Of a stretch of DNA of 64,000 bases, positions 22,036 to 48,337 are shown piece by piece (the first letter of the stretch is position 1; each line of letters starts with the position of its first letter). The stretch covers positions 352,001 to 416,000 of the forward strand of contig CH464491.1 in the NCBI GenBank assembly GCA_000002445.1, given 5' to 3'. Under the pieces are notes generated by a model. That model was not told where the DNA came from. It did no database searches and saw only the letters and a list, made by a program, of their open reading frames with translations. This DNA is from Trypanosoma brucei. Lineage: Eukaryota. Position numbers and translations under genes: made by a program.

Positions 22036-22890
22036 TGTTTCTGTCAAAAAGGAAAAAAAACTTGTCGCACAGAATGGTGGGTGCGGTTGCGCGTGTACGT
22101 TTTCACGAAAGGAGAATTGATGGATGTGGCGTGTAGTTTAGACATATGTGGACGGCCCCGCGGCGGAGGATTTGGGTTTTAAGTGTGTCTCCTTTTCCAT
22201 TTTTAAAAAAAAATTCCAATGCTTTACTTTGGATATATCTGGATGGGGGCACTCTTATATGCTACACCCTTGCGACTTACTTTTCCGTTCATTTACTGTG
22301 GGGTGAGGTTTAAAAAAAAAAACTCGTGTTACTGGAATGGTAAGCGTCGTTTGTTCGTGAACCACATGCTTACATTGGCTATTTAACCTCATTTCATACG
22401 CTCAAGGAGGGGATCAGGGACTTTAATCCACAAGCTTTTGTCACTTTCCCCCTTGTTTTTTGTTTGTATGCACCTTAATGTATGTCTGTCTATTTTCTTT
22501 TTTTCTTCCGAGGTAATATATATATATATATTTTACGTATATATTGGGCACAAACGAACACCTTTTTTTTGCCGGTCAACTTAAAGAATGGGTGGAGCGA
22601 CTTCATCTGAAAGGGGGAATACGAAAAAAAAAAAGGGGGTGTAGCGTTGAGGAACTACTTTCCACTACGGAACGAGCCCTAAAAGAAGGGAAATAGGGAA
22701 GTAATACGCAAAGCACATTTATAAATATTTATATAAAGGGAAAGAGAGCACAGGAGGGCTGTTGGAAACGCAATAAAGCACTTGTGGTACCTCTTCTTTT
22801 TGCGAAAGTGAGGTTACGCTTTGGGTTGCTACTTTTCAGGCGGTAAACTAAGTGATTAGGGTGTGCGTAATTAAAAGTTCCCACCACTTT

Positions 22891-24810: not shown

Positions 24811-25419
24811 ATGCTTCGTCGCACGTCGTTTAATTTCACAGGGCGTGCGATGATTTCGCGCGGCAGCCCCGAGTGGTCGCATCGTTTGGATCTCAAGAAG
24901 GGGAAAAAGACGACAATGATGCACAAACTTGGCACCAGTAAACCCAATAATGCATTGCAGTATGCACAAATGACTTTACACGACCTTACGGAGTGGTGCC
25001 TCGCTTACTCGCCGTGGCCTCTCACCTTCGGTTTGGCATGTTGCGCCGTAGAAATGATGCATGCATATGCTTCTCGGTATGATTTGGATCGTTTTGGTAT
25101 TGTACCGCGTCCAACACCCCGTCAAGCAGAAATTATTATTGTCTCCGGCACTGTGACAAATAAAATGGCTCCAATCTTGCGGAACATATATGTTCAAATG
25201 GTGAACCCCAAGTGGGTTATTTCCATGGGAAGCTGCGCTAACGGTGGTGGTTACTATCACTTCTCCTACGCCGTGCTCCGAGGCTGTGAAAGAGCAATAC
25301 CAGTTGATTTCTGGATTCCCGGTTGCCCTCCTTCAGCGGAAAGTCTTGTCTTTTGCTTGCATACATTACAGAAGAAAATACGCTGGCACGAAATTCAAAA
25401 GTATTCTGTTCGAGATTAA
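24811..25419 (+). CDS. NDUFS7: NADH:ubiquinone oxidoreductase 20-kDa subunit (PSST/NDUFS7/NuoB homologue)
   Basis: ATG at 24811 with a basic presequence ([18 protein letters not shown]). Diagnostic NuoB blocks are present: [11 protein letters not shown]...[30 protein letters not shown] and IPGCPP. Confidence 0.9.
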
Positions 25420-30600: not shown

Positions 30601-31091
30601 CGCGAGACATCATCCCCCACCATGGTTTGGTGTTTTATGATGAAAAGGAGGAGGTAGTTGGTCTTTTGGCACTGCGATTCGCCCTGACAAGATCTCCGGA
30701 CATCACTACAGGAGAAATGCTTCTTCCAATAAGGCTACTGCCGCCAGTTGTTGCGACAGCCGCCTTTAACGCGCAGTTGAATGCTGCTTATTTTACCGGT
30801 AATGCAGTTTTCCACAGTATCACACGCGTTGGGAGTGAAAGTGAAGTATTGCGTCACTCAGAGAGTCTCCAACACCTCGGAAACTTCGAAACTCTTTCGC
30901 CCTTATCTAAGAAACTAACCCTTTCAGGGGCGCGTTTCGGAGCAAGCGATGATCCACCGCACAAAGTAGTCTGCGGTGACGACGACGTCCTGCCGTTCTG
31001 TTGGATTGGTTTTGAAAACCAGTCGCGTATGTTGATGATTTCAGATGTGCATCGCCTCTCCTGGTATCCATTATACTTCACTGATGAATAA
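27621..31091 (+). CDS. Protein-kinase-like protein, probable pseudokinase, with a long Ser/Pro/Thr-rich disordered C-terminal region
   Basis: ATG at 27621. The kinase C-lobe signatures are recognisable (FAPELL = APE motif; NVWSLGMIAYQIASG = DxWSxG). The catalytic loop reads PACISMEDILV instead of HRDLKPENILL, so the catalytic Asp and Lys are lost. There is no clear GxGxxG or DFG motif. The C-terminal 500 aa are rich in SP/TP/R. Confidence 0.75.
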   Translation: MSSVRLLLGQVMHITPSSVIFSADEVDTLDFQTVSTIPKAHRDFVQKNGLIAKVMLSVTSKITSWSTREERQKIWWDALTSTGLVRSKATTVEVPTNLSGVFWPIIDDEQLMIYADAAIKRHANLKLNECPYVVPVLYAQQIFYKCQEVKGTLCVVWMPKCRYNLAHWTKVQVPRRFIPESVLYKLIYDITNALIFLRDVCVEYPACISMEDILVGGVSDAEPSFLLNTLTSRPTCNQSEANSRSSSTVLFAPELLIQPCKLLTNSACNVWSLGMIAYQIASGLPSEESKAHLMGTRHAAGEMMLNHYRLKPSDVVLRVRAVLQAGSYNNPFIHLLLLMLGQDPHTRPTPYVVYEMLRDIMRFKPVIRFPFAIGPFTLVHLWSDDKIAVDPVQRRYDTEATCIVCNESRSNLMCGDNEHTSALCSPLWSAEEPLPGYAVARETSMTYLYPMLGRLDKKAQRRYIDAALRGDKMNRGSLLQLLGGFALLKPNEGKSAVAHDVMIPLPNGVLHKDEKVAVAAELNFTAALPWPSQCTFKLQQEGRIQWSIPGLFGFSNARWYAWILPGEKLELNGEPWVPAPDGAFVFWFNESLQPSEYDRYFVVCSVLSLTWQAKMKSNVLPDHVFKRKGDVGGLTPSNGSEGGFSSCTTSHNGEGSAERHSKKDVDGVNKSGRSALGQRSVNSLLNLPKVGDLQCTKGDGILPARRQVSSTANTTSSSSNSCDSDNSNPNHRRPPRRGSAVVRMDYVDDVVPDMIFDGTGETNSKGQPLQPQQRNGVTGHRSNSTEGIISVLHRSEDGMACSTPREPTYPRERPQGRHINPQPTEPTANPRPPPPNNSPGRRQRHEGEGKFGRLPSGMVTTPTLSKSPSGSRFSGRPSSPSAADVNRTLSPKESAVLQQSKTGFPLQSPPLRVFGRWHPPRHIDAPFQSLTFCTSSTAEHGTLSPPVMLSMGVRTALHAPAAATHMAFAANIMPLVRRNHPKSSAALVVKENNARDIIPHHGLVFYDEKEEVVGLLALRFALTRSPDITTGEMLLPIRLLPPVVATAAFNAQLNAAYFTGNAVFHSITRVGSESEVLRHSESLQHLGNFETLSPLSKKLTLSGARFGASDDPPHKVVCGDDDVLPFCWIGFENQSRMLMISDVHRLSWYPLYFTDE

Positions 31092-32868
31092 GCATTGGTG
31101 TGATTGTTGCCGCTTGGGCGTAGATTTTTCTTTTCCTTTTTCCTTTTTTTTGTTTTTGAAGAGTATGAATCACTTCCTTCTTTTCGTCGATGATTTCTAT
31201 TATTCCCCATCCCTCCCTCGGTTGATTTTTTTTTTTACACCTGTACGTGTATAGTTTTTTTTTTAATTAACTTGTGTTACCGCAGTGAATGTTGTCAAGA
31301 ATGGGAAATATTATGAAGGGGAAAATGAATAAGCAACCTTCACTGTTTGGCTGGAGCAGTAAGGTGTACAACAAACATTTCCCAGTCTTTTTTTTTTCAT
31401 CGGATCCCCCCCCCATTTTTTGTGCCCGTTTGTGTCCGCCTTTCATGCAGAAACGAATTGAATAGCGGTAACTGTGCTTCACGGGAAAACAAGTAATGAA
31501 AGCTGAATAAAATGAATATTTCTCGTTTTGAGTTGTTTTTATGCTTTTATTTATCTCTTCGGGCAGGCATCCATTTTATTTCCTGCGTTTGTTTCCTTTT
31601 TTTGTCCGTGCCATTTCCCCCGTTCAGTCCCGAGGCTCCTCCGCGCTATCGCAGTAGATTTTCGTAGATCCACGTATTAATTTTCTTTCTGAATAATTAT
31701 TTTAACTATTTCCTCCTCATCTGCGCTACTCTAACACAAAAGGGCTTTCCACAAGTGAGTTGGTGCAGGAAATTCTCCTACAAATTATATATAATTGTAT
31801 ATAGTAGTTTCATTTCTACTATTTATTTTTTTTCCTATCGAAGTTTATTTTTTTTTTTGTTTCTGATGTGCATATCGCAGACATCAAACCCTTGTCTTGT
31901 ATTTGAAATTATGCATGGGGATCTATGTATCGGCGCACGCACGCACGCAAACACATGCACAAATACTATTTCCATTATTTGTTCTTATAGAGAGAAAGAA
32001 AGAGATACGAATGTTTTTGACATTATGATAATATGAGATAACAAAAGAAAATAATAATCAGTAAAGGCAATAAAGGCAGTGATGCGTGCTGGTGGTTTGT
32101 GAAGGATGCGGCGTACACCGGTGTTCCTGTTTTTTTTTTTCCTGTTTCAACATTGACACACCCGCACTGTTGTAATAGGAAATATAGATTTCTCTCGTAA
32201 ATATGACCAAACCATGTAAACGCATACACCCACATGTATATATTCTAAGTGAGGAACACTTTAATCGCTAAAGAGAATAAAACAACGGAAGAAAGAAAGA
32301 AAGATGGGGGAGAAAAGATAAATTGTGGTGACTACCTGAACGCAGCGAATTATATTTTATTTATTTATTTCTGATTATAATAAATTACCTTTATTATTCT
32401 TATTTCTTGAGGAGGTGGCACCCCTCTCATGTGGCGAGTGAGGTAGAAAAGGAGGAGCAGACTGATATACATATATATATTTATTTAAAAAGGGACAAAT
32501 GCAGCGGGTATGGGGAAAAGGAAAAGCAACCTAAGCTGAAGAAAAGAAAAAGGTAAGGGAAACTTGATTGTTGAAGCGCGGTAAGGGGACACATTCAAGC
32601 ATTGATGAGTATCTTTGTGCACTTAGTAGCCATGTATCTCATCGTATATTTACACGATTCGCCACATACTTATATGCACACACTTGAAGATGACCTAACT
32701 TACTGCCTTGTAGTATTTCAACACTCTTAACGGCCGCTGTCTCTTCTGCTCATGCACGTTCATGTTCTTTCGTCTCTTACTTTTGTTGTTTTTTTTTTCA
32801 TTTTGGCTTCAAACGTTCCTCAATATTAACTATTCGTGGTAGCTTTGCCAACAGACGGGTTTTTAAAT

Positions 32869-33792
32869 ATGTGGAGGCCTTATACTTTGTTTGTTGTGCC
32901 CATGCGATTCGGGAGTCCGCTTCAGTTGAGGTCGCTATTTGTTTCCCGCATGCCTGGTCGTTTTGACGCCTTTTTGACACGGCGATTTGTTTCAACAGCA
33001 ACACCCGGAGGGCAGCCGATTTGTAGTGACTCTCATAATTCTGCAGCATGTCTTACGGCTGAGGAGTTCTCCAACATCGTCCCCATGTTTTTGTTGGGTC
33101 AAGCGCTACGTCAACACACTTCTAATGAGGAAAATCGTGCAGGCGCAGGTGAGTTTGTCATTACCCGCGAGGTATTCAACCGCTACTGTAGCGAAAGCCA
33201 CGTGGAAGACACGGACAAAGCTCTTCAACTCCTCTGCGAAAGCGGTGTCGTCGTTTCTATTTCTGATGGAGCGGCGGTTCATCTTCGACCGGTGCAGTTC
33301 CTTCAAATGCACAATGACGCCGCTGATGCGAGTGATGCGAAGGTGAAGACACCGTTTGAAGATTATATCCGGGCAGCACAAAACCGTTTAGCGGATGCGG
33401 AAGCGGAAGAAATGGCGATGCGGGTTGCGCTTCAACCTGCTATTGATAATGCAGCGAAGCGGCGGCGACTCTTGTGGTCGGGTGCCCTCTGCCTTATGGC
33501 GGTCCAACTTGCAGTGATCTCACGGCTAACATTTGTTGACCTTGACTGGGATATCATGGAACCTGTGTCATATTTTCTGGGCAGTGGTACATCGATCCTG
33601 TTTCTTATTTATCTTCTCAGGAATGGGCGGGTGAAGAGCTACAAGGAATATGAAGAGAAGGCAGCGGCGTCGCGTGTTCGGCTGCACGCTCCGGCAGACT
33701 TCGAGTGGAGGAAATACGATGCAGTGGTGAGACGAGTGGAGGTGGAGAAGAACATGGTGGAGCAAATGCGGAAGTGGTTTAAACATCACTGA
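32869..33792 (+). CDS. MCU: Mitochondrial calcium uniporter (MCU) family protein
   Basis: Two hydrophobic helices flank the canonical selectivity-filter motif DLDWDIMEPVSYF (compare human WDIMEPVTYF). The N-terminus is presequence-like (MWRPYTLFVVPMRFGSPLQLRSLFVSRMPGRF). At 307 aa it is the size of kinetoplastid MCU paralogues. The track start 32836 is a GTG; the first ATG is at 32869. Confidence 0.75.
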   Translation: MWRPYTLFVVPMRFGSPLQLRSLFVSRMPGRFDAFLTRRFVSTATPGGQPICSDSHNSAACLTAEEFSNIVPMFLLGQALRQHTSNEENRAGAGEFVITREVFNRYCSESHVEDTDKALQLLCESGVVVSISDGAAVHLRPVQFLQMHNDAADASDAKVKTPFEDYIRAAQNRLADAEAEEMAMRVALQPAIDNAAKRRRLLWSGALCLMAVQLAVISRLTFVDLDWDIMEPVSYFLGSGTSILFLIYLLRNGRVKSYKEYEEKAAASRVRLHAPADFEWRKYDAVVRRVEVEKNMVEQMRKWFKHH

Positions 33793-35192
33793 TATTATTC
33801 ATAGTGTTGTATGGACCTTTTTCTGGAGTTGTTTATTATCTTCTTTCCATACGTTTTCTTGTTTGTCGATGGCGCCAAAGAAGGGGAATGGGAGACATGT
33901 TTAGTTGTTGTTTTTTTTTTTTTACATTGAGCAGGAAGATCAATCCTTCGTTTTTATCCTTTGAAGGGGGAAAGTGCTTTTGAAACACTTTGGTGTCCAT
34001 TATCTTTTTTGGTGCTTTTCGTGTGCGTTAGTGTGAGGAGATGCAGGAAGTTCACTGATGTTTTGTTGGTTGAATCGGTTGATTTTGCCGTTGTCTTCTT
34101 GTGAGTTGAAAACTTGAATTACCTTCTTGTTATTCATTTCTTTATTTCTACTTCCGCCTTGTGTGAGGCTGTCACATAATATATATGCATATCAGTGGTG
34201 TTGCAACCAGGAGGTAGAGGAGAGAATACTGCCCTTTGTATTCTAAGTGTTGGGCCGTTAATGAGTGACGCAACGCGTAATAAAGTTATGGCTTTTTGTT
34301 TGTTTTCATTGTTTCCTTCCCTTTTGACCATTTTGCTGCTATCCTTTTTGGTGACGACTGATATGCCATTCGGCTTGCAGTTGACTTTTGTAAGGTAATT
34401 CTCTTCGTTCGAGCAATCCCCTTAACATATATATATATATATTGATACTCATAAACTGTTGTTTACGCTACTCTGCCGTTCTCATTTTTCTCCTATAACT
34501 ATTTTTAAAAAAATTACTTACTTTGTTCCCATTTGTTTGCTCTGATTTCCCCATTGTTGAGAAAAAAAAAGAAAAAGGGGAAGAAAAGAAACCTAACGGC
34601 AGGTTGTGTTTATTTTCCCTTCTTTCTTCTGTCATAGCCGCAAGCAATTTAAAGCTCCGAATCACGCAAATAACTATTGTATTAACAAGACGGAAACAAC
34701 AGTACCCAAATTTTTTCCCTTTCATTTGTAGTAAAAAAAAAATACATTTGTATTTTTTTGTTTTTTTTTGCTTTTTTGCCGGTACTTTTTGTTCCGCCTC
34801 CGTTAGAAACAACTCCGGAGGGAAGAGAAAAAGGGAAACTCCCGCAAGGGAATACGAACAAACTAGCAGAGGGGAGATTTAGAAGAAGGAAAGGACAAAG
34901 ACGGAAGTGTAACTATAAAGAGTGAAGAAGGAGCGTAGGCGGGATTATTTTATTTTATTTTTTTCCATAAATCCCTTGCCCTGTCGGACCAGAAAGAAAA
35001 TACATAAAATCAATTGATAGTCAATAAACTTTAAAAAAAACAAAGAAAAGGGTACCAATAAGTGGAAACAGAAGTGGCGGATACCCTCCCCTACGAATAT
35101 ATCCAATCCTTGCAGTGGTTCCAGCGAATTGATCAATCAAAGCAGAAAGGGACGAAGTAAAACCGTTGTGTTCACAAGGTGGTAGCCTACAG

Positions 35193-36899
35193 ATGACGAT
35201 GTCGGACACAAGTGCAACATACAGTCTCCACAACCACTACGGGAGGATTAATAATGTATGCACCATTAGCCCACAGGCGTCACCCAGCCCATCAGCATTA
35301 CCTCAAACCGTCGAGGAGCACTTTGATGCAGAGGCTTTACTTAAAGAACAGAGACATCTCTTGGAGAGTTCCCCTGCAGCCGAAATTCGTGCCTCACCAT
35401 TTCTTCGATTTCGGTTGAACGCCCAACAGAAGTTCACAATGCAGCACAATCAATACCTGGAGCGATGTGCGCAGAGGGAAGCCTCAGACAGGAACCCGCA
35501 CCCACTCACAGCATCTGCAACTGGTCTAAGGGAACAGTTTACACAACATTTGGGTCGTCAAAGCATTAGTCAAGGACAAAACCAAAGCTATCAAGATGGG
35601 GAAGGGTTGTGTTGTTCCGGCTGTCAAAATCGTTTTGTGGATGCCATTGCTTTGAACAGACACAAGTCCACTTGTAGCGAATATGCTGCACTGGTGTTAC
35701 AACGCCGTGGAAGCGAAAAACTACATTACACAGCCCGCTGCTTTTCTACTAGGGAAACTGCTGTTACGCCGAGCAACACAGATATACGTCCCATACTCAG
35801 TATTCGAGAACGCGCCGAGGATCCTCAACCGATACCAGATGTGCTCACAGCACGTGGCGGACACTTTTCGTATCGCAACCAACTTTCCACTCACGGAGGT
35901 TATCAGGGAAATGAGGGAGAGAATGCCGCTGCAGTCGCTGTGTTTTCACCTAAGGCGGGAAGTGGAAGTTTGAGCCGCTCTCTTCCAACCCCAACATCTT
36001 TGCGTGAGGATATGCATAGCGAATTTGAGGCGCGAGACACAAAACACAACATCCGTGCTCGCACCCAGTCGCAGGAGTTAACTCCGCCGACACCAACCTC
36101 CACATGGCACCAGCCGTCTACTTCACTCAGGGTTACTTCAATCGATGAGGTTCCAGCCTCTGTGGCTGCTAGGCAGAGTGTAGATGCAACGATGCCCACA
36201 ACTCCTCTCGGCTACCAATTGGGTGAACGATTTGATGTGGATATTTCGGTAGACAAAAGCAGCTTTGGTGCAGGGACATTCCAAGGCATGGTGTCGTATT
36301 CCCACCTTGGAGGTGGTGTAGATAGCTTAAGAGAGTCCTCTGAGCCTCCTGACGAGCCACTTAAACCGTGTCCCAGCTGCGGTCGTCAGTTTTTCGCCTA
36401 CTCACGGTGGCCCCGGCATGTGGCTGTTTGTGACAACAAACGTCAGCAAATAAACTCTAGAGGTGGTGGCTCGGTTTCCTCCATCTCCTCGTTTCGTTTC
36501 CCATCAGGAAACGCCAACCGCCTCCCGCAAACTGCCCTGGAAAAGTCGACGGAATTAGGCGGTACCACCACCACTACCACTACTACTACTACTGCCACTA
36601 AACTGACACGCACAAACACTTCAGAGAAGAGAAAGAGCCTTGGAGCCAGTTACGTGGAACCTAGTATTGAGAGGAGACCACTGAGTGCGTCAAACCGAGG
36701 TAGGGACGCTATGGAAGGACCGAATTTTGTGCGGACGTCGACGTATAGCAGTGAAACTTTTGCAGAGGAAGATGGCCAAGTTGTTGATGATCGCGTACCG
36801 TGTCCTTCATGCGGGCGTCGTTTCGCCACCCATGTGGCCGAAAGGCATATTCCCCACTGTCGTGAACGCAGCGAAGGGAACCCACCAATACGGTTGTAA
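35193..36899 (+). CDS. ZC2HC-type (C2HC) zinc-finger protein with a poly-Thr tract
   Basis: Three C-x2-C-x11/12-H-x3/4-C units are present: CSGCQNRFVDAIALNRHKSTC, CPSCGRQFFAYSRWPRHVAVC and CPSCGRRFATHVAERHIPHC. An 11-residue Thr run is encoded by (ACC/ACT)n at 36563-36597. The track start is a TTG; the first ATG is at 35193. Confidence 0.65.
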   Translation: MTMSDTSATYSLHNHYGRINNVCTISPQASPSPSALPQTVEEHFDAEALLKEQRHLLESSPAAEIRASPFLRFRLNAQQKFTMQHNQYLERCAQREASDRNPHPLTASATGLREQFTQHLGRQSISQGQNQSYQDGEGLCCSGCQNRFVDAIALNRHKSTCSEYAALVLQRRGSEKLHYTARCFSTRETAVTPSNTDIRPILSIRERAEDPQPIPDVLTARGGHFSYRNQLSTHGGYQGNEGENAAAVAVFSPKAGSGSLSRSLPTPTSLREDMHSEFEARDTKHNIRARTQSQELTPPTPTSTWHQPSTSLRVTSIDEVPASVAARQSVDATMPTTPLGYQLGERFDVDISVDKSSFGAGTFQGMVSYSHLGGGVDSLRESSEPPDEPLKPCPSCGRQFFAYSRWPRHVAVCDNKRQQINSRGGGSVSSISSFRFPSGNANRLPQTALEKSTELGGTTTTTTTTTTATKLTRTNTSEKRKSLGASYVEPSIERRPLSASNRGRDAMEGPNFVRTSTYSSETFAEEDGQVVDDRVPCPSCGRRFATHVAERHIPHCRERSEGNPPIRL

Positions 36900-38109: not shown

Positions 38110-38397
38110 ATGCCCTCTATCGCTTCGATGATTAAAGGGAATAAAGTGGTTGTTTTCTCATGGGTCACTTGCCCCTACTGCGTCCGAGCAGAGAAGTTAC
38201 TTCACGCACGCACTAAGGATATTACCGTACATTATGTGGATAAGATGAGCGAAGGAGAACAACTGCGCGGTGAGATTTACCAAGCATACAAACACGAAAC
38301 GGTTCCCGCCATATTTATTAATGGAAATTTCATTGGCGGTTGCAGCGATTTGGAGGCCCTTGACAAAGAGGGAAAACTCGATGGTTTGCTGAGCTAA
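38110..38397 (+). CDS. GRX: Dithiol glutaredoxin (CPYC class)
   Basis: ATG at 38110 and 95 aa. The active site VVVFSWVTCPYCVRAEKLL is present, with TVPAIFINGNFIGGCSDL (the GSH-binding TVP and GG.dl blocks). Confidence 0.85.
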   Translation: MPSIASMIKGNKVVVFSWVTCPYCVRAEKLLHARTKDITVHYVDKMSEGEQLRGEIYQAYKHETVPAIFINGNFIGGCSDLEALDKEGKLDGLLS

Positions 38398-39340
38398 ATT
38401 TGAGACAGTGAGGAGGATTTTTTTTAAAAAAAAAGAAGAGAAAAAAGAGAAAGGGGGGATTACGTGAATATATATGCGGTTGCAACCCTCTGATTAATAT
38501 AGTGCCAAACGAGAGGTGTTTGCATATGTTGAGGGGGTAAACTACACACCCTTCCTTTATATACATCTCCTTCATCCTTCACTTGATCGCTTTCATTTTT
38601 TTTATATTTTTGTTCCTGCTTATATTAGGGGTTATAATGCATTATGCATGATGTGTTCTGCTCATTTCATACACGAGGGAAGGGAAAACGGAAACGGAAA
38701 TGCAAGAACGGGAGAGAGTAGGAGCGAGTGAACTGACATCAATTCAATCGGGGGAAGTGTTTAAAAACACCTCACCGGTATAACTTCCCCTATTGATACG
38801 TTACGCACGATGCTATTTCTGTTGTTGAATACTCGCGCTCTGAAGATCGCCTTTTAGCACATGTGCCACATTTCCCCTCGGCTCGGTCTTCTTTCTTTCT
38901 TATATGTTTGCTTCTACTCTTTTTTCTTTGTGTTTCCTCCAAATTACAACTGTTGTTAGGGGCTGCGACACGGTTTCACGGTACACATATAAAGTTATAT
39001 ACGTAGACGCCTGCGTACATTTCACAATTGGATACAGACACACAAGTTTTGTTTGAACTAAGAGGAAGTTCGGTAGTATAGATTCGAAGAAAGAAAAAGG
39101 AATACCTACGTGAGTATATTGTATAAAGGAGGAAACGGGCAAGAGCTGTTGAAGACAAATACTTCAAAGAGAGGACGTTTCCACACATACTTTTGAAAAG
39201 CGGCCGCAGTGCTGCATAAGTGCAGGAAGTAGAGTTGGAAAAAAAAAGAACAATTCCGACACCAAAACAACATTGGGTGTGTGCAAGTACGGCTCAAAAT
39301 CGCTATCACCACTTGAAACTGTGGTTTGAGTGAAAGGGAC

Positions 39341-42300
39341 ATGTTGTTAAACAATTTTATTGTTGAGGAACGTTACAGCGCATGGCAGAAGAAAAGGGTT
39401 CGAACAATCATCGTTAACAGCCGCTCACGGTTGGCTGCTCACCGCAGCATCACGGGAGCTTTGGCTATAGCGAAGCCGTACGAACGTATTGAGTTGGTGG
39501 GTGGTGAGTACTTCGAGTCGCTATTGATCAGTGCCCCTATTGAAATTGTGGCTGCGGACGGCGAGGAACCAGTTGTCTCCTCCCGTGGTTCCTGTATTAC
39601 CATCACACGAGATGTTGAGGCGTATTTTGAACAGGTAACATTTGTGTCAAAATCAAGAAGTAAACTGGAGTCCGCAGTGGCTATTCTCAACGGAAGATCC
39701 GTTTTCTTCCGCTGCAACATGAACTCTGTTCTGATAGGTGGATGGGCGCGCCCGTATATTGAAAACTGCACAATTGCTGAGAGTCACAACGGTTATGGAG
39801 TACAAATTGGTGACAGCGCGGGTGCTGACATTTGGCAATCGGCAATCCATTCACACCAAATAGCATGTATGGAGATTGATACGAGGGGTATAGTTAACGT
39901 GCGTGATAATACAATTCATCAGTCATCTAATTTGGGGAACGCTGTCGTCGTCAAGGCAATTAATAGCATCGCGGACGAAACCACTCCGCCAGAGTTCCTT
40001 GCATGCCGTCGAGTAGTAGTGACAAAATGCCGCATTTACATCAGCCCTGACTCTTATGTTCCAAAAGACCGCGACATGAGCTCACTGGAAACTCCAACGC
40101 AACCGTGTAGTTGTGTGTTGATATCACGGGGTGCGTGCCCAACATTTTCCTTCAACGAACTGACCCAAGGAAACATCGGGTTTACATTCGATGGTGCTGG
40201 TTCTGCTGTGCTAGAGGGAAATTGCATATACAAGCAGAAGATATGTGGTATTCTTGCTATTGTGGATGACACTAACTTCTCTCCAGACTCAAAATCAAGG
40301 GGTCTACGCATTACCGGAGGTAATCGAATTGACCGCTGTTACGTCGGGATAGACGTGCATTGCTCCGCAAAAGCTGCAATGGCCGCGGGAGTGAGCCAAC
40401 AAAACCTCATTCCGCTGGAACTGCCATCGAGTCGTAGGGCATTCACGTGGTTCAGGGGGAAGGATAGTGGCAAAGTTGTGGCTCCCCCTTCGGACAAGGA
40501 TAATTTTGATGATAACCACACTTTTGTAGTACATGGTCAGCCAAAAACAATGAAGCAACTGACAAATGAACTGAGAGAGTTGGCCACTATGGTGTGTGCC
40601 GGGCATATTAAGCACTTTACTTCGGCCACTGTTGCAGACACACGTTACGGCGTTGCCACGAGCCTTAACCAACTGGGAGAACTCTTGGAAGAGATGTTAA
40701 ACATCACAATTCCTCCACCTAACATTTCAGAACGTGCGGCTAAACTATTGGAGCTACGACGAACAGATGGAGTTGAGATTCGAGACACGAGGTTCTCCAG
40801 TTGTGGCCTCTGTGCTATTCGGTTCGGCAGCAGCTCCTATGGCGTAGTGGAAGATTGTAGTTTTGTTTCCTGCGGTGCAACGTGTATTGTGGTGTGTAGT
40901 GCGGCTCACCCTCTGATTATTGGATGTAGGTTTGAGCACGCAAAAGGTGTCGCCATTTACATGGACAACTTCGCCAACCCTCTTATCATGGGTAACGAAA
41001 TCATAGGAAATGCGGAGAATGGCGTGGAATGGCGAAATATTTCTCGCGGGATCTTGATGGGAAATGCCATCGTCGGAAGTACTGTCAACGGTTTGTTATT
41101 GACCGGTGGGTGCAGTGCCATTGTTGCAGCTAATTCGATTCAATGCAATAACGCAGCGGGAGTAGAGGTAGCGGAGGGGAGTAAACCGTTTATTCTTCTT
41201 AACAAATTAATAGGAAATAGGACAGCACAAATCCTTTCCTCAGGATACTCAGCACCCGTTATTGCCCATAATAGAATTACCAGCGGTAGAAACATTGGTA
41301 TACACTTTCTTTCGTGTAGCGGTGGCACCGCTTTGGATAATGCAATCGCCCAGAACGAGCGTGGTATTGTGGTAGAGTTGGGTGCAGATCCCTACGTGTA
41401 TGATAACAAAATTATGAGCTCGAACCGTTATGGAGTAGTAGTAGAAAACAATGGCCTCGGAACATTTGTGGAAAATACAATCACGCAAAGTGGGATGTGC
41501 AACATTCTCATTAAGGAGGGTGGTTGCCCGGTGTTGCGCAAGAATTCCATCAAGTTCGCCAACTCTGGTGGTTTGGTGATCGTGAACGAAGGATCCGCCA
41601 CTGTTGAATACAACACAATTTCCGGTAACCAGGTGGCTAATGTCATTTTACTGGACCGGTACACTGATCCCACACTTACAGGTAACACAATATCTGCCTC
41701 ATGTAGTGGGGGTGGTATTCTCTGCGGGCGCATGTCCAGTGGAAAATTCAGCCGCAACATCATTACGGAGAACAAGCAATATGGTATCTGTATCATCGAG
41801 AAGGCGGAGCCCGATATCACCAAGAACGTCATTATGGGAGAACAAAATGGTATCATCGTCTCTGATGAGGGGCGCGGTTCGATTCGAGAAAATTCCATTC
41901 ATTCCTGCGGCAACGCTGGTGTTCTCATACAAGCAAACGGTGATCCGTTTGTAGAAAACAACAAAATATGTCGCTCCGCGGGTTGTGGTTTGGTGGTGAC
42001 GAGTGACGGGAAGGGGAAGGTTATTGGCAACGAGTTTTTCGAAAACGATGTGGGACTGCAGTGTGGCTCCAGTGCGGGAAACACAACGCTAGATGTTGAT
42101 GAAAATTTCACAACGAAGAGCCCTGGAGCAGCCGTAGCACGGACACGTAGGTCCGCCCTGGTGAGCAAACGTTCATTTGCTGGCAAACGGCAGCATATTC
42201 AGTCAACATCTACCGCAAATCCACATGCCCTTGTGCGGTGCAACAAAATATACGGTAACACTACGTGTGGCGTGCTGTTGGAATGTGGGATCTCCGCTGT

Positions 42301-45300
42301 GTTGGAAGAGAATGAGATCTACTCCAACGTGGAGTTTGGCATCTTAGCGGATAGCAGGTACTGCGCGCGGCGCCTCCACGGAAAGCTGAAGGGTATTGTT
42401 TTTGAGGGTTTCAAGTTGCCGCGGTTACGGTCCACGGGTTTGGTAACTGTCATTCGTAACAATCGCATAATTGATCAACGCCACACCAACATTGCGTTTG
42501 TGGATTTCTCTGATGGTGATGCTGCAATTGTCCAAAATCAAATAAGCGGTGCTCCGGTGGGCATTTATGTAGGGAACAACTCTACAGTTAAAACAGTAGA
42601 GGGCAACGTCATTGAAAACTGTGATGACGGTGTGTACGCCGAAAGCGGGGGTTGCGGAAACTTTGTGGACAACACCATCCGCGACTGTACGGGAACTGGG
42701 GTATACGTGTCTGACGAAGCGAACCCACAATTTTGTGGCGGGAATGTAATCGAGCGATGCCGCATCAGTGGTGTATTTGTTGACGCTGGCGGTAAAGGTC
42801 TCTTTAAGGAAGCAAGTATACGCAACTGTGTTGTGGGTGTTGTGGCGTACACATCACCACCTCTCTGCCACGCGGCTGGGAGGGACACCGCGGGTAAACC
42901 TATTGTTACATCTTCACCAGCAGTCGAGCAGTGTGTAATTGAGCGAAATTATTTGCACGGAATTTTTCTTTGCACTGTTCTCAGTGGTCTTCCTCTTCGA
43001 CAAGAATCGTGGGGTTCCGGTAAGGAATACACGAAATCTACGAAACTAATGACTAGCACGGAGACGCGTACTTTTCCAATTTTCCGAGGTAATACGATTC
43101 GAAATAATCGGCATTTTGGTGTGTGTCATGAGCTGTACTCTCTTGATGGGCGTTTGGAAGAATCAAGAGGAAGTGACTTCAGTGAAAGGACGGGGGGAAC
43201 GTGTGCGGCGGATAGTTTTGGGGCGCATGTCGGACGCGCGTTTCAGAGGGGCACTACATCATCAAGAACACCTTCACCGAGGTCGTTACAATTTTCATAC
43301 AGGGACGGGGTGAGCTCGTCTTCTGAGCAGGATGTGGAGTGGCACTTCCCTGAACGGATGCAACGGCAGGCAAGCTTTGTGGAAAATGACATCAGTAATT
43401 GCTCCATTGGTGTTGTTGTTGGCAGCAGTTGTAACCCCTTCCTGCTCAACAATAACATTCACAACAACGATTTTCTAGGTATATTGCTTCGGCGAGGTGC
43501 ACAGGCGATGAGTTATGGGTGCAAAGTGCTCAACAACGGTTGGGTTGGGTTGTACGCCGCTCCACGTTCTTCTGGTGCCTTTACATCCGGCGAAATCCGA
43601 GGAAACAATGGTTTCTGCCGGCCTGACACCAAACCCACTGACACTCGGTGTTTCACAACTTTTTCCTTTACGGAGGCTGCTACCCCTTTACCACCTTCCT
43701 TCAAGACGTCCTACGATTTACGCAGCAGTATGTATGGGGATCTTTTGATGATGTTGAGCGACTACGGGGACACAGTCGCCAGCGCGCTGGTTATGCTTTG
43801 CGAAGTTGTGTCACTTTCATCAGCAAGCCTTTCCCTTGCAGGTACCGTCGTTCCATATGGCTCTCTTGACAGTTGTCACTCGCATAGCGGCGGCTCGCTG
43901 TTGGAGCAGTACGATCGAGCGTGGGCGGCAGATGGGGGCATTGGTGTATGGATTGCATTGGGAAGCATGACCGAAGTTTCTGATAGCGTGGTGGAGGGCA
44001 ACCAGAATGTTGGTGTATTCTTCTCTCGCGGAGTAGAACACCAGCTGAAAAACATGTTAAATGGCGTTTTGACACGGGAATATGAGCTTCCGGAGGTTCC
44101 TGGAGCCGAGGTCATCACAGGTGGGCCAGCTGGGCCTGGCTCCACTCGCCCACGCTGGTTGCTGTTTACTTCTGAGAGTATTCGCGGCTGTTCAAATCTA
44201 GCATCGGCAGAACTAACGATGACGTGCAATGGTTTTGGGACGGAAGCGGGGAAAGAACCCAACCCAGCGGCCTCTCTCACCTCGGTGCGGACAGAGCTGG
44301 ATGACTGGTGCGGTGAGCCACCATTGGTGCTTCCCCGACCGCCAATAGTGCGACGTAACCAAATCCTTAGAAACGGGTATGGAATAATTATTCATCTACA
44401 CCAAACGCTCAGAGCAGAGGGGAAACAAGAAGTACAGGGAGTCGCTGATGAGGGTACCCCGCGTGCGAGCGGAAAGGACAAGCAAAAACGAAGAGGTTCC
44501 GTTGGTGGAAGGAGAGCGAGTATAGTAGGCGCAGCACCTTTACCTGGAATACGGCGAAGAAGGAATTCCATGTTTCGTAAAGGGAAAAAAGTTGAAGAAG
44601 AAACCCCACCCGCCACCCCTTCTGATGTGGTTAATCCATGGGCAGATGTACTACCACCGCACGCTCTTAGTGAAAAGTCGACGCCAGAGTTCACCATATG
44701 CGTGCAGGAAAACAGGATTTTCGAAAACTTCACCGTTGGTGTTGTCTGCCAGCACGTTTTGGAATTAATGTGTGGTCGTTTTGTAAAGACACGCCACGAA
44801 ATCGGAGTTGCCGCTGACAGATACGATAGTGTGTGCGTCATGATTACTCTCAAGAATCAATCAGCATTGCCAGAGAAGCTGTTTACACTAGAAACTCAAG
44901 AGAGATTGGTGCACCATGCTCAGATAATGAAAAATGATATATACAAGAATGTGAGGGAACAGGTGCAGGTGACATCACGCTACGTTGCTGTCACTGGTGA
45001 CAAGGAGCGAACCCTGCTACAGATCGATACTCTGCGACGACCATTTGCGTCTGTGTGCTCCTCTTGTGCACTCTTACGCATACCGCTGTTTACTTCACTA
45101 ATTGGCGCCACGTCCCCTGGTTGCTTCTACCTTGAAAATAACACAATACACGACTGCTCGATGGGTATTCACCTAATCGGTGTACTGGGAGCAAAATCCA
45201 CATGCTTGCGCCGGAACGTGTTTTATGACATTGCAGATATTTCGGTTCACGTTGAGGGTCATCTATCGTCAGCAACTATCGGATACGGCAATATATTTGA

Positions 45301-48300
45301 GAGGAACGGCATCAGTGTATTGGTCGCAATGCCTGAGGATGAGTGTACGGAAGAAGAAAGACAATGGCAACAATTCATAGGCGTAACGACACGCATTTGC
45401 GGTAATAAATTTTCCTCGCCTGTTAGTGTCTCACTAGCCTTCAGGGGGGGCGGCGGACCTGGTCCTGTTGTGGGAGGAAATAAGTTTGCGAATCATCAGT
45501 ACGGCCGCGTTGTCTTCTTCTGCGATTCTTCTTCGGGGTCTACGATACGGGGAAACGTTTTTCAAAACAACTACGCGCCACTCATTGTTACAGGCACTGA
45601 GGGCCGCGAAGACGATGGAAAACGTACTATTATTGAAAACAATCTCTTCTCACAGAACTACATCGGACTACTTCTGTGCAACGGTGCTGCAGCGCAGGTT
45701 GCGCGTAACGTTTTTGAAGACAATTTTCGTTCTGGAATAGAAATTATCGGGAAGGGAACAAATCCCTTGGTGAAGCAATGCTTGTTCGTCATGACCAAGG
45801 ATTTACTGTCACTCTCAGGTGCTAGAGAGCAATTTATCTATCCAAGCGACGGAGTTCTGCGCGTGGACGGTTGGCCTCAGTTTTCTGTCACTCTTTACCC
45901 AGACAACGTCATCACACACGGTGACGTTAGTAGGCGTTTATCTTCTGGCGTCCTTATCGAGTGCGAAAGCGGTGGGACGATTGAAAACTGCTTCTTCAAA
46001 GGAAACCAGATCGGTGTAGATTGCATTCGCGGTGCTTCTCTAGGAGTGGAAAACATCGTATACACTTCTGAATCTGAACTTCTCGGTCCTCGATTCCTCA
46101 ATTGCTTGTTCCTACAGAACACGATTGCAGGGGTTTGGCTTCGCGGTGCGCACGCCGAAGTGGGGGTTCCTCAGAGTTTTAACGGCCGTCGGCGCCGTTC
46201 CCAAACGCACCCCAAGGCCTCAAGTTTCGATCATTGTTTTTTCATAAATAATACAGCAACCATGGACGAATACGGAGATGTTGTTGCCACGGATGATGGT
46301 TATGCCACATTTAGCAATAGTATGTTCACCGGTTGCATTCACGGTAAAAGAGGGTCAATGGGTTCATTTGAGCGCAACATTTTCTCCTGTGGTGGGAAGG
46401 TGGACACTGCGGTGATCCTGCACAGGGGAACGCGTATGGAAATGCGTGATAATACTATATCCGGGTACAGGAGATCCATTATTACGCACACGGGGGCGTG
46501 GGGACGGCTTGAGAAGAACTGGATCTTGGGTGCTTCGCGTTGTGTTATCTCAGCACCGTTCTGCAACACACTATTTACTGGGAACCGCATACTAGGAGCG
46601 AAGGAGTGTGGCGTCTTTGCCTATGGTGGCGTTTTCGTAAGTAATGAGATTATGAGATGCCAAACAGGCGTGGTTATACGCAATCCTGCAGAGTATAAGA
46701 ATTATCACGTCATCCCTTCTGTCGACAAGGGAACTCACTCTTTGTTGTTCTCTGAGAACAAGGTCCACACCTGCGAAGTTTGTGGTATATTTGTTGCTGG
46801 CGGGGGGCGCGTAGAAGGGAACGTAGTCTCTAACAACAAAGTGAATATAACTGTCACTTGTGGAACAAAGGCTGCTCAGGGAAGCGATATCTGCCACATC
46901 TTTCAGAATGCGGTTTTTGACGGTGGGGTTGGTCTCCAACTAATGAACAGATCCGATGCCCTCGTCGAAGGTAACAATATTTTTGACAACAGCACATACG
47001 CAGTACTGATGAAAAAGGGTGCGAGAGGCAGACTAATGAACAACAACATATCTAGCCACCTCAATGAGGGCGCATTGGCTGTAGACGAGGGGAGTGAAAC
47101 AAAGCTACTCTCAAACACGGTGCGAAACCAGTTTTCTCCCGTTTATAATAAGCTCCTGGGGCCGCAGCGCATGAGGGAAAGGCAAAATGCTGCCGATGTC
47201 TTGAAGACGGAGTTGCATGAGCTGGAGCAACGTGGGTCCGAATATGCAACAAAGTGTGCCGCGCTACAGGAGGAAATGCGAAGCGTATTCCATCGCTTAA
47301 GGGAAAGCTGCTGCGAAAGTGACGGTAGCAAGATGAATATTGGAACACTTCTTGGAAATTCGTTTCAGAAGGCATTATGTGCAGACGAGGACGAGAAGGA
47401 CGCCCTTAAATTGCCTGCACTGGATGTCCGAACCCTTTCTACAGAGGATTCTACCGCTCCTAATGACAAAGAAAAATCTCCCACCACACCTTCCATGTTG
47501 TCATCAACAGTTCGTGCCAGCACTTCGTCAGTGAAGGATGGAGGAAACAAAGATTCTTATAATATCCACATCCATCTTGTGCATACCGCATATGACGAGA
47601 GTGAGTGCGAACAAGTGTGCAACGAGGTACAATCTGTTTTTGATTCGCTCTCACTTTCACTGCAACTACCGCTACGCGTCCTCACCACGACTAACTCCTC
47701 GGCATTTCCTGCAAACTGGCCCTCGAAGCAGCTCAAAATATTTGTCGTTGTGGTTGGTAACATTACTAATGATGATTCCCTTGAGGACGATGTCAAGCTG
47801 GTGCGTGCGCTCCGGTTCCCGAAGACCTTAGCGGGTAACGAAGAAATCCCTGAGGAGATGAGTGATGTTCTCATTATTTCCATCATATCGGAGGAGTTTC
47901 AGGAGCATGCAGACGTGCTGCGCACCACAACATCCGGGTTTCCTTTGGCTGTGCAACTCCAAGATCTGTTGTCCCACAGCAATCCCATGCACTACGTTTC
48001 AGGCGTTTCGGAATGCCTTGAGGAATTGCACCGAAGAGCAGAGTCATATCTCCTGAATGCTGCGAATTCAGATAAATCTGATGATTACTTCACCAATGAC
48101 CCAGAAGAAGAACAGAGTTCCCGTTACTCAGCTGACACGCATGATGGTCACAAGACTGGTGCCTCTCCGAGGGGATCTGAGTGGCGGGGTACTTCGCCAA
48201 TGCTGGAATCGAAGGAAGATGAATGGCAGCGCCTCCCGGTGTTTGGGGAAAAATTAAACGCGTATATGTCATTTGATTTAATTAGGAAGAAGGTGAGCCA

Positions 48301-48337
48301 CTCAAATACATCCGTTCTGCTACCAAATGTTAGGTGA
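39341..48337 (+). CDS. Giant (about 3000 aa) protein dominated by tandem right-handed parallel beta-helix (PbH1/CASH-like) repeats, with a C-terminal coiled-coil and an acidic tail
   Basis: A 9-kb uninterrupted + ORF. The track start 39326 is a TTG; the first ATG is at 39341. Dozens of 22-25-aa repeats of the form N.I..N...GI.I......P.I..N.I occur (e.g. NAIVGSTVNGLLLTGGCSAIVAANSIQCNNAAGVEVAEGSKPFILLNKLIGN...). They fall in at least four blocks (aa about 60-330, 470-900, 1000-1300 and 1900-2500). A heptad-like segment around nt 47140-47300 (LKTELHELEQRGSEYATKCAALQEEMRSVFHRL) and a Glu/Asp-rich C-terminus follow. Confidence 0.85.
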   Translation: MLLNNFIVEERYSAWQKKRVRTIIVNSRSRLAAHRSITGALAIAKPYERIELVGGEYFESLLISAPIEIVAADGEEPVVSSRGSCITITRDVEAYFEQVTFVSKSRSKLESAVAILNGRSVFFRCNMNSVLIGGWARPYIENCTIAESHNGYGVQIGDSAGADIWQSAIHSHQIACMEIDTRGIVNVRDNTIHQSSNLGNAVVVKAINSIADETTPPEFLACRRVVVTKCRIYISPDSYVPKDRDMSSLETPTQPCSCVLISRGACPTFSFNELTQGNIGFTFDGAGSAVLEGNCIYKQKICGILAIVDDTNFSPDSKSRGLRITGGNRIDRCYVGIDVHCSAKAAMAAGVSQQNLIPLELPSSRRAFTWFRGKDSGKVVAPPSDKDNFDDNHTFVVHGQPKTMKQLTNELRELATMVCAGHIKHFTSATVADTRYGVATSLNQLGELLEEMLNITIPPPNISERAAKLLELRRTDGVEIRDTRFSSCGLCAIRFGSSSYGVVEDCSFVSCGATCIVVCSAAHPLIIGCRFEHAKGVAIYMDNFANPLIMGNEIIGNAENGVEWRNISRGILMGNAIVGSTVNGLLLTGGCSAIVAANSIQCNNAAGVEVAEGSKPFILLNKLIGNRTAQILSSGYSAPVIAHNRITSGRNIGIHFLSCSGGTALDNAIAQNERGIVVELGADPYVYDNKIMSSNRYGVVVENNGLGTFVENTITQSGMCNILIKEGGCPVLRKNSIKFANSGGLVIVNEGSATVEYNTISGNQVANVILLDRYTDPTLTGNTISASCSGGGILCGRMSSGKFSRNIITENKQYGICIIEKAEPDITKNVIMGEQNGIIVSDEGRGSIRENSIHSCGNAGVLIQANGDPFVENNKICRSAGCGLVVTSDGKGKVIGNEFFENDVGLQCGSSAGNTTLDVDENFTTKSPGAAVARTRRSALVSKRSFAGKRQHIQSTSTANPHALVRCNKIYGNTTCGVLLECGISAVLEENEIYSNVEFGILADSRYCARRLHGKLKGIVFEGFKLPRLRSTGLVTVIRNNRIIDQRHTNIAFVDFSDGDAAIVQNQISGAPVGIYVGNNSTVKTVEGNVIENCDDGVYAESGGCGNFVDNTIRDCTGTGVYVSDEANPQFCGGNVIERCRISGVFVDAGGKGLFKEASIRNCVVGVVAYTSPPLCHAAGRDTAGKPIVTSSPAVEQCVIERNYLHGIFLCTVLSGLPLRQESWGSGKEYTKSTKLMTSTETRTFPIFRGNTIRNNRHFGVCHELYSLDGRLEESRGSDFSERTGGTCAADSFGAHVGRAFQRGTTSSRTPSPRSLQFSYRDGVSSSSEQDVEWHFPERMQRQASFVENDISNCSIGVVVGSSCNPFLLNNNIHNNDFLGILLRRGAQAMSYGCKVLNNGWVGLYAAPRSSGAFTSGEIRGNNGFCRPDTKPTDTRCFTTFSFTEAATPLPPSFKTSYDLRSSMYGDLLMMLSDYGDTVASALVMLCEVVSLSSASLSLAGTVVPYGSLDSCHSHSGGSLLEQYDRAWAADGGIGVWIALGSMTEVSDSVVEGNQNVGVFFSRGVEHQLKNMLNGVLTREYELPEVPGAEVITGGPAGPGSTRPRWLLFTSESIRGCSNLASAELTMTCNGFGTEAGKEPNPAASLTSVRTELDDWCGEPPLVLPRPPIVRRNQILRNGYGIIIHLHQTLRAEGKQEVQGVADEGTPRASGKDKQKRRGSVGGRRASIVGAAPLPGIRRRRNSMFRKGKKVEEETPPATPSDVVNPWADVLPPHALSEKSTPEFTICVQENRIFENFTVGVVCQHVLELMCGRFVKTRHEIGVAADRYDSVCVMITLKNQSALPEKLFTLETQERLVHHAQIMKNDIYKNVREQVQVTSRYVAVTGDKERTLLQIDTLRRPFASVCSSCALLRIPLFTSLIGATSPGCFYLENNTIHDCSMGIHLIGVLGAKSTCLRRNVFYDIADISVHVEGHLSSATIGYGNIFERNGISVLVAMPEDECTEEERQWQQFIGVTTRICGNKFSSPVSVSLAFRGGGGPGPVVGGNKFANHQYGRVVFFCDSSSGSTIRGNVFQNNYAPLIVTGTEGREDDGKRTIIENNLFSQNYIGLLLCNGAAAQVARNVFEDNFRSGIEIIGKGTNPLVKQCLFVMTKDLLSLSGAREQFIYPSDGVLRVDGWPQFSVTLYPDNVITHGDVSRRLSSGVLIECESGGTIENCFFKGNQIGVDCIRGASLGVENIVYTSESELLGPRFLNCLFLQNTIAGVWLRGAHAEVGVPQSFNGRRRRSQTHPKASSFDHCFFINNTATMDEYGDVVATDDGYATFSNSMFTGCIHGKRGSMGSFERNIFSCGGKVDTAVILHRGTRMEMRDNTISGYRRSIITHTGAWGRLEKNWILGASRCVISAPFCNTLFTGNRILGAKECGVFAYGGVFVSNEIMRCQTGVVIRNPAEYKNYHVIPSVDKGTHSLLFSENKVHTCEVCGIFVAGGGRVEGNVVSNNKVNITVTCGTKAAQGSDICHIFQNAVFDGGVGLQLMNRSDALVEGNNIFDNSTYAVLMKKGARGRLMNNNISSHLNEGALAVDEGSETKLLSNTVRNQFSPVYNKLLGPQRMRERQNAADVLKTELHELEQRGSEYATKCAALQEEMRSVFHRLRESCCESDGSKMNIGTLLGNSFQKALCADEDEKDALKLPALDVRTLSTEDSTAPNDKEKSPTTPSMLSSTVRASTSSVKDGGNKDSYNIHIHLVHTAYDESECEQVCNEVQSVFDSLSLSLQLPLRVLTTTNSSAFPANWPSKQLKIFVVVVGNITNDDSLEDDVKLVRALRFPKTLAGNEEIPEEMSDVLIISIISEEFQEHADVLRTTTSGFPLAVQLQDLLSHSNPMHYVSGVSECLEELHRRAESYLLNAANSDKSDDYFTNDPEEEQSSRYSADTHDGHKTGASPRGSEWRGTSPMLESKEDEWQRLPVFGEKLNAYMSFDLIRKKVSHSNTSVLLPNVR

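Follow-up and report, generated by a model that had tools for sequence, protein, structure and literature searches.

Tb927.11.1380 of Trypanosoma brucei, a giant intracellular beta-helix protein with a possible role in the flagellar cytoskeleton

What does a protein of about 3,000 residues, assembled for the most part from tandem beta-helix repeats, do inside a trypanosome? Right-handed beta-helices are textbook folds of enzymes and adhesins outside the cell; inside it, FBXO10 and FBXO11 are the main known examples. The question is raised by the gene Tb927.11.1380, which lies in a stretch of 64,000 nucleotides of T. brucei DNA (assembly GCA_000002445.1, contig CH464491.1, positions 352,001 to 416,000 of the forward strand). 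This stretch is called the window throughout, and positions are counted from its first letter. The product may well have a structural or docking function, without catalysis, in the cytoskeleton of the flagellum (axoneme or paraflagellar rod), a reading to which we give an even chance. The locus, its Pfam-based product name and a high-throughput localisation are already public, which makes the observation a rediscovery of a gene with existing annotation.

Identity and fold of the protein

A single frame on the plus strand runs without interruption from 39326 to 48337. In the list of open reading frames (ORFs) it opens at a TTG and comprises 3003 codons, the length given in a preliminary description of the window. 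The earliest ATG is located at 39341 and leads to 2998 residues, five fewer, followed by a TGA stop at 48337. The N-termini of orthologues line up with this ATG. The single 9-kb ORF of the preliminary description is therefore retained with a corrected length.

39341..48337, plus strand: complete coding sequence of Tb927.11.1380, TGA included (ORF list, translation, 100% identity to XP_828229.1/Q387B4)

The translated protein is identical to XP_828229.1 of T. brucei brucei TREU927 at 2998 of 2998 positions. This entry corresponds to EAN79117.1, to UniProt Q387B4 and to the chromosome 11 gene Tb927.11.1380; the computed mass is 325.5 kDa and the computed pI 6.35. An identity of 82%, listed for the T. 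brucei cluster representative, results from averaging over off-register repeat matches, and direct comparison gives 100%. The identifier is fixed by UniProt Q387B4 together with the sequence window of phosphosite S1292, which maps exactly onto the protein (PMC6907760 S2 Table). Tb927.11.1370, a guess from gene order and a cytosol marker in the hyperLOPIT dataset (PMC10361982), was rejected. A glutaredoxin ORF intervenes and takes the number 1370, and the S1292 window gives Tb927.11.1380, so the 'cytosol' reading of the giant protein was dropped.

The gene is expressed and its product is phosphorylated. S1292 is listed as phosphorylated with a log2 FCmax of 1.54 over the cell cycle and a peak in late G2/M (Benz and Urbaniak, PMC6907760 S2 Table). 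An ORF split into several transcripts, or not expressed as one polypeptide, had been considered in the preliminary description. This phosphopeptide from the middle of the protein and the conservation of orthologues of about 3000 residues both speak for one expressed polypeptide.

The full protein matches the Pfam family PF13229 (Beta_helix) in 14 stretches with E=7.9e-107 and 354 bits (cut-off 25.9), and eight of ten segments of 300 residues match this family separately. The NCBIfam model TIGR03804 (para_beta_helix) is matched with E=8.7e-25 and 86 bits (cut-off 19.45), its best stretch comprising residues 1357–1400. A rung-like motif occurs 50 times, compared with 8.9 ± 3.0 times in 200 shuffled sequences, and its spacing peaks at 22–24 residues. 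A hidden Markov model (HMM) of the rung detects 22 positive-scoring rungs, compared with none in each of 20 shuffles. The single-rung HMM extends poorly past module 2 (residues 478–908). The profile of module 2, on the other hand, maps six blocks, at residues 119–319, 478–908, 930–1179, 1339–1425, 1930–2228 and 2288–2600. Self-BLASTP shows no internal repeats at E<1e-3 as pairwise comparison cannot pick up rungs so degenerate. There are 78 conserved Asn positions along the whole protein. In a 14-sequence kinetoplastid alignment, a ladder of invariant Asn residues extends from N552 to N897 in steps of 22–24 residues. The tandem repeats of 22–25 residues noted in the preliminary description are borne out, and the run quoted for them is found at residues ~575–650. 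Its 'at least four blocks' was right about multiple blocks and too low in number.

An AlphaFold2 (AF2) model of residues 1–1200 was built with 13 homologues. It has a mean predicted local distance difference test score (pLDDT) of 80.8 and consists of three beta-helix rods, with pLDDT below 50 for the intervening segments. Each 23 residues form three short strands (E3-E3-E5) with pLDDT above 90. The Foldseek neighbours are all right-handed beta-helices (AlgG, AlgE4, PL6 lyases, tailspikes and NosD). With the family profile, the only relatives found in the PDB are AlgG (E=2e-6) and a PL6 lyase (E=0.0086); phmmer searches of the PDB with single sequences gave nothing significant. Pfam and NCBIfam profiles, AF2 rungs and structural neighbours agree on the pectin-lyase-like fold that had first been proposed from repeat periodicity. 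The fold is that of a parallel beta-helix, right-handed and of the CASH/PbH1 type, with a modular layout.

The full protein also matches PF05048 (NosD) in 10 stretches with E=1.2e-65, and according to the database product name it would be a NosD-like copper-handling accessory protein. These matches overlap the generic Beta_helix matches. As the NosD family model TIGR04247 yields 63.7 bits against a cut-off of 300, the name reflects fold similarity only and is an artefact at the level of the fold. Furthermore, a eukaryote such as T. brucei has no periplasm, and the window contains no NosF, NosY or NosL partners. The copper-handling role is effectively refuted, and a misleading product name (NosD, copper-binding) is hereby corrected.

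The fold is best known from enzymes that bind or modify carbohydrates, the nearest PDB entries and the structural neighbours belong to the same classes, and the UniRef name reads 'Carbohydrate-binding/sugar hydrolysis domain-containing protein'. The product could accordingly be an active epimerase, lyase or hydrolase acting on an intracellular or flagellar glycoconjugate. However, the catalytic DPHD motif of AlgG is not conserved. In the profile alignment, GIAPHD of AlgG (a D317A mutant chain) faces a non-conserved 'GvlvsegS', and by regular-expression search the string DPH does not occur in the 2998 residues at all. Nearly every residue that stays invariant among the orthologues is a structural Asn, Gly or Pro, and the protein has no secretory signal. 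Multi-rod arrays of ~3000 residues are atypical for enzymes, and we know of no cytosolic polysaccharide substrate in trypanosomes. An active enzyme is thus considered improbable. The structural character of the invariant residues, the lack of DPHD and the fusion of non-euglenozoan relatives to intracellular recognition or signalling domains (see the last section) rather suggest a non-enzymatic role.

Modules, linkers and the C-terminal domain

The arrangement of the protein from the N-terminus to the C-terminus is as follows.

39341..40363, plus strand: module 1, residues 1–341, N-terminal beta-helix with cap helix (AF2 pLDDT mostly >85; Beta_helix and weak DUF1565 matches)
40370..40759, plus strand: linker 1, residues 344–473, disordered in 344–391, then three helices in 404–473 (AF2 pLDDT <50 for 344–391)
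40772..42064, plus strand: module 2, residues 478–908, the longest rod, CASH-type, with ~19 regular rungs of 22–24 residues (AF2 pLDDT 87–96; Pfam E=5e-37)
42065..42226, plus strand: linker 2, residues 909–962, basic, Ser/Thr-rich and disordered (AF2 pLDDT <50 for 920–959; composition)
42227..42850, plus strand: module 3, residues 963–1170, beta-helix with a disordered basic loop at 1015–1033 (AF2; module-2 profile E=6.8e-20)
42851..43354, plus strand: linker 3, residues 1171–1338, Ser/Thr-rich and poorly conserved, containing phosphosite S1292 (codon 43214–43216) (composition, conservation)
43355..43615, plus strand: module 4, residues 1339–1425, short beta-helix of ~4 rungs (TIGR03804; Pfam; module-2 profile E=1.7e-9)
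43616..45127, plus strand: middle region, residues 1426–1929, weakly beta-helix-like with scattered conserved rungs at N1673/1678 and from N1791 onward (conserved Asn)
45128..46024, plus strand: module 6, residues 1930–2228, beta-helix (module-2 profile E=1.9e-8; Pfam Beta_helix/NosD in segments 7–8)
46202..47140, plus strand: module 7, residues 2288–2600, beta-helix ending in a conserved NT(I/V)RNQFSP (module-2 profile E=1.4e-11 and 2.2e-8; Pfam)
47147..47305, plus strand: helical, possibly coiled-coil segment, residues 2603–2655 (Tropomyosin E=0.045; heptad periodicity p~0.07; alignable across orthologues)
47513..48145, plus strand: C-terminal alpha/beta domain, modelled for residues 2725–2935 and ordered in ~2740–2916 (five-stranded flavodoxin-like/receiver-like fold)
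48146..48334, plus strand: C-terminal tail, residues 2936–2998, unconserved (10–12% identity and 34–37% gaps in orthologues; composition)

Module 1 is the best-conserved part, with 52–58% identity over residues 1–100 among orthologues and W15, Q16, R21, T22, N26, P46, R49 and E51 invariant. The AF2 helices of the poorly conserved, gappy linker 1 comprise residues 404–422, 439–453 and 462–473, and linker 2 has 34% gaps in orthologues. The conserved Asn residues of module 3 are N968, N991, N1041, N1066, N1089, N1111 and N1135. Overall, the rods share 30–45% identity in the orthologue alignment, and the linkers and the C-terminal 350 residues are of low identity and gappy. This pattern of conserved modules and variable linkers points to selection on the whole architecture.

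Residues 1501–1800, scanned as one segment, have no Pfam match. A basic insert of poor conservation (residues 1695–1785, with 62% gaps at 1701–1750) interrupts the middle region. Three RRxS motifs are present in this insert, namely RRGS 1717, RRAS 1724 and RRNS 1740 (window positions 44429–44575, residues 1697–1745). The insert may offer a basophilic kinase a site that is specific to the lineage. The available part of the S2 Table of PMC6907760 contains no phosphosite in it.

The N-terminus MLLNNFIVEERYSAWQKKRVRT is devoid of a hydrophobic core and forms strands of module 1 in the model; a signal peptide is not present. Hydrophobicity scanning of the 2998 residues reveals no transmembrane (TM) helix or TM cluster. 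Only two hydrophobic windows are observed, both within folded regions and none past residue 1497. Among homologues longer than 1800 residues there is likewise no signal peptide or TM-helix cluster, and a C-terminal TM cluster is found in none of the 150 best homologues. Targeting signals are thus absent, which points to an intracellular location of Tb927.11.1380.

The preliminary description had placed a coiled-coil-like segment and an acidic tail at the C-terminus. The segment is indeed helical, with a weak match to Tropomyosin, but its heptad periodicity does not go beyond the p value listed above, and a coiled coil is not established. Residues 2800–2949 are net acidic (29 Asp and Glu against 12 Lys and Arg), whereas the last 50 residues are not. 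Most of the acidic stretch belongs to the folded alpha/beta domain, so the C-terminus is more than a coiled coil with an acidic tail.

The alpha/beta domain shares the (beta/alpha)5 fold with response-regulator receiver (REC) domains of the CheY type but has neither a conserved acceptor Asp at the end of strand 3 nor a conserved acidic pair after strand 1. After strand 3, the 13 aligned sequences read GN, RA, GL, DA, NS, HR or PP. Neither a Response_reg match nor, at E<=1, a match to TIR or TIR_2 is found in any of the 13 orthologous segments, which also have no invariant Glu. The likeness of the model to the TIR domains of RPS4 and L6 is no better than that to REC or flavodoxin. H2745 is the sole invariant residue of the domain in the 13-sequence alignment. 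A word-indexed protein search with the C-terminal 408 residues gave no match. Judged from the model, this part of the protein is a degenerate flavodoxin/receiver-like domain.

Flagellar association, relatives and genomic setting

Scaffolding, glycan binding and a cytoskeletal or flagellar structure had been left as possible functions in the preliminary description. The last of these is the one backed by published proteomics (PMC10361982, PMC8141408). In bloodstream forms, hyperLOPIT classifies Tb927.11.1380 in 'flagellum 1', which comprises the core axoneme and the paraflagellar rod, with a probability of 1.0 (PMC10361982). DRC1-APEX2 proximity labelling also recovered the protein from the detergent-insoluble fraction; it stands in Table S1A, in the sub-table for proteins that earlier flagellar proteomes did not contain (PMC8141408). 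Thus, it co-fractionates with the flagellar cytoskeleton and is labelled in its proximity.

As a structural or docking protein, Tb927.11.1380 would form a beads-on-a-string layout of at least six rigid beta-helix rods with flexible, partly phosphorylated linkers between them. In this layout, the rods would provide stiff spacing and extended surfaces for binding. With ~75–80 rungs and 0.48 nm per rung, they may add up to roughly 35–40 nm of rigid rod. The conserved N-terminal module, together with the C-terminal helix and the alpha/beta domain, would mediate attachment or self-association.

Several points weigh against a flagellar structural role. In procyclic forms, the hyperLOPIT probability of 0.985 is below the threshold of that study, and the protein was left 'unknown' (PMC10361982). 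About a quarter of the DRC1-APEX2 list is without a flagellar TrypTag localisation by the authors' own count (PMC8141408). A 325-kDa, possibly oligomeric protein could co-sediment with the cytoskeleton for trivial reasons. No dedicated localisation or knock-down data for Tb927.11.1380 were found, the TrypTag supplement consulted has no entry for it, and no paper in the literature searched names it in the main text. The structural models cover residues 1–1200 and 2725–2935, with the span 1200–2700 outside them, and the coiled coil is weakly supported (p~0.07). To our knowledge, beta-helix enzymes have no universal catalytic signature, and the loss of the AlgG motif leaves other active sites possible.

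Relatives were collected in an exhaustive representative search with residues 1–1200, which yielded 2741 proteins at E<=1e-3. Full-length trypanosomatid orthologues of 2982–3781 residues rank at the top (e.g. T. melophagium with 46% and Leptomonas seymouri with 37% identity), and all sampled trypanosomatids have one. A word-indexed search returned one T. cruzi fragment for residues 1–520 and two weak matches for module 2. The next group consists of proteins of 1900–3300 residues with 26–29% identity, which share the N-terminal cap motif '..WQ+k.V.T..V...I..A...A.P.DRIE..GG.Y'. Where the organism is named, its members are all euglenozoan: a T. theileri paralogue, Bodo saltans CUG94151, the prokinetoplastids Apiculatamorpha and Papus, and the diplonemid Namystynia. 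A transcript labelled 'Hpha' is taken by us to come from the diplonemid Hemistasia. Like Tb927.11.1380, these euglenozoan paralogues are without signal peptide or TM helix and have many Beta_helix stretches after the cap motif. They differ in forming separate, uncharacterised paralogue groups. T. theileri TM35_000093270 (P0094 in our list, 3096 residues) constitutes, with P0060 and P0087, a paralogous giant family in Trypanosoma at 26% identity. The N-terminal motif of this family is a different one, '..VR.IRVGKS.T..F..I..A'.

An array of this size had been called unusual for a kinetoplastid. This does not hold, given the orthologues in all sampled trypanosomatids, the paralogous giant families and the DGF-1 proteins of T. 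cruzi with ~3000 residues. Every homologue that can be named is from a kinetoplastid or a diplonemid. Kinetoplastids and diplonemids are the groups that possess a paraflagellar rod. It is conceivable, though we hold this only tentatively and rate it as rather unlikely, that the relatives form a Euglenozoa-restricted family of giant intracellular rod-chain proteins that build the paraflagellar rod or its axoneme connectors, with the rungs serving as a spacer or ruler.

If the flagellar structural role is correct, with a conserved 325-kDa rod chain in the flagellar skeleton, the fold would here be put to a different use, namely as a building element of the cytoskeleton. Some of the densities that have no assignment in the axoneme and paraflagellar rod of this major parasite might then be accounted for by the protein. 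A literature search on beta-helices in trypanosomes brought up only unrelated proteins (TBCC, UGP) besides a preprint on DGF-1 (10.64898/2026.07.27.741050). Compared with the literature searched, the modular description, the C-terminal flavodoxin-like domain and the euglenozoan paralogue families are new. The same applies to the relation to FBXO11-type repeats, to the finding that the protein lacks defining features of the FBXO11, DGF-1, NosD and AlgG families, and to the proposal of a rod chain in the flagellum. This content is a synthesis and a hypothesis, not the discovery of a locus.

All 17 ORFs of at least 200 residues in the window are on the plus strand, which fits a kinetoplastid polycistron. 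The genes preceding Tb927.11.1380 include the following, and the order of those from FC1 onward fits its number.

20563–25419, plus strand: upstream housekeeping genes for a ubiquilin/DSK2-like protein (UBQLN1 and UBA), a cytochrome-b5-reductase-like flavoprotein (FAD_binding_6 and NAD_binding_1) and a homologue of the complex I 20-kDa subunit (Oxidored_q6)
27621–31091, plus strand: flagella connector protein FC1, Tb927.11.1340 (1156 residues, weak kinase-domain match; phosphosite windows S784 and S879 map exactly)
32836–33792, plus strand: mitochondrial calcium uniporter TbMCU, Tb927.11.1350 (MCU domain E=1.9e-32)
35166–36899, plus strand: zf-C2HC protein of 577 residues with two zf-C2HC_2 fingers, Tb927.11.1360 by gene order
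38110–38397, plus strand: glutaredoxin of 95 residues, Tb927.11.1370 by gene order (Pfam Glutaredoxin E=1.8e-14)

With FC1, the polycistron of the beta-helix gene contains a second flagellum-related gene, 8 kb further upstream. In hyperLOPIT, Tb927.11.1360 is assigned to the nucleus in procyclic forms and lies near 'microtubule structures 2' in bloodstream forms (PMC10361982). The segment 16001–18000 has a GC content of 0.30 and a GC skew of -0.12, compared with a GC content of 0.38–0.51 and positive skew elsewhere. It contains no ORF of at least 200 residues and may be a long intergenic or repeat region.

Besides the full-length orthologues, the gene order is also conserved. T. cruzi keeps the order MCU, zf-C2HC and beta-helix gene (GCA_003719155.1, contig MKQG01002396.1, 10001–18103). 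On this contig, the interval between the last two of these has no called glutaredoxin gene. The orthologue itself is annotated there as two models of 304 and 2081 residues, ~950 bp apart, probably owing to an assembly or frameshift artefact or because the copy is pseudogenised.

Comparison with known beta-helix systems

A link to FBXO11-type CASH domains had been suggested in the preliminary description, and it is substantiated by module 2. In BLASTP, this module aligns in rung register with a protein of 900 residues that combines F-box, Beta_helix and zf-UBR (P0053; F-box-like match E=5.9e-16), with 30% identity over 309 residues and E=5e-37. Tb927.11.1380 shares with FBXO11 and FBXO10 the CASH/PbH1 rungs, the periodicity of ~23 residues and the intracellular location. 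The architecture differs: FBXO11 and FBXO10 consist of an F-box, three CASH domains and a zf-UBR finger in ~900 residues, as opposed to at least six modules in 2998 residues. No match to F-box, F-box-like or zf-UBR (PF02207) is found in the full protein or in any of its ten 300-residue segments. Unlike FBXO11, Tb927.11.1380 carries a flavodoxin-like domain at the C-terminus and shows an association with the flagellar cytoskeleton.

Some of the closest non-euglenozoan relatives of module 2 (P0034, P0036, P0050, P0051 and P0167) carry Beta_helix fused to TIR_2, protein kinase or PNP_UDP_1. From their domain composition, these fusions appear to resemble intracellular sensor or defence proteins.

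These likenesses raise the alternative of a soluble, FBXO11-CASH-like recognition or adaptor protein, the surfaces of which present protein or glycoprotein clients to another machine. The flagellar signal would then be secondary or originate from the clients. Such an adaptor would be in line with the module-2 match to P0053, the kinase, TIR or PNP domains joined to these repeats in close relatives and the lack of a signal peptide or TM helix. Regulation is suggested by the phosphosites and RRxS motifs in the linkers. However, no F-box, UBR box or other effector domain is found in the 2998 residues with Pfam and NCBIfam, and the C-terminal domain has neither receiver nor TIR catalytic residues. 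Furthermore, the protein is placed with the detergent-insoluble skeleton of the flagellum, and not in the cytosol, by two proteomic approaches that are independent of each other. An adaptor is therefore regarded as unlikely, and a structural or docking role in the flagellar cytoskeleton is preferred.

The bacterial proteins AlgG/AlgE4, the PL6 lyases and NosD are the nearest solved structures by profile and fold. Bacterial members of the CASH family are single rods of 400–700 residues that are periplasmic or secreted, whereas Tb927.11.1380 is an intracellular giant with multiple rods.

The DGF-1 surface proteins are similar in size and in general build, and Tb927.11.1380 was compared with them by description. 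DGF-1 is reported to have ~3000 residues, a signal peptide, seven ribs of ~390 residues with ~12 coils, a hat domain and 7–9 TM helices (preprint 10.64898/2026.07.27.741050). Both are trypanosomatid proteins of ~3000 residues with tandem right-handed beta-helix modules, flexible linkers of low model confidence and PbH1/pectin-lyase-like annotation. These likenesses raise the alternative of a member or remnant of the DGF-1 family with its seven ribs. However, DGF-1 is multicopy and extracellular, and Tb927.11.1380 has no signal peptide or TM cluster, nor do any of its 150 best homologues have a TM cluster at the C-terminus, which here is a soluble alpha/beta domain. The rungs of 22–24 residues differ from the ~32 residues per coil calculated for DGF-1 from the figures of the preprint (10.64898/2026.07.27.741050). 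Moreover, the locus of Tb927.11.1380 is syntenic between T. brucei and T. cruzi, and DGF-1 and its rib domains are reported absent from African trypanosomes (preprint 10.64898/2026.07.27.741050). Membership in the DGF-1 family is thus very improbable. African trypanosomes, reported to be without DGF-1 ribs, still retain a giant beta-helix protein with multiple modules that is very probably unrelated.

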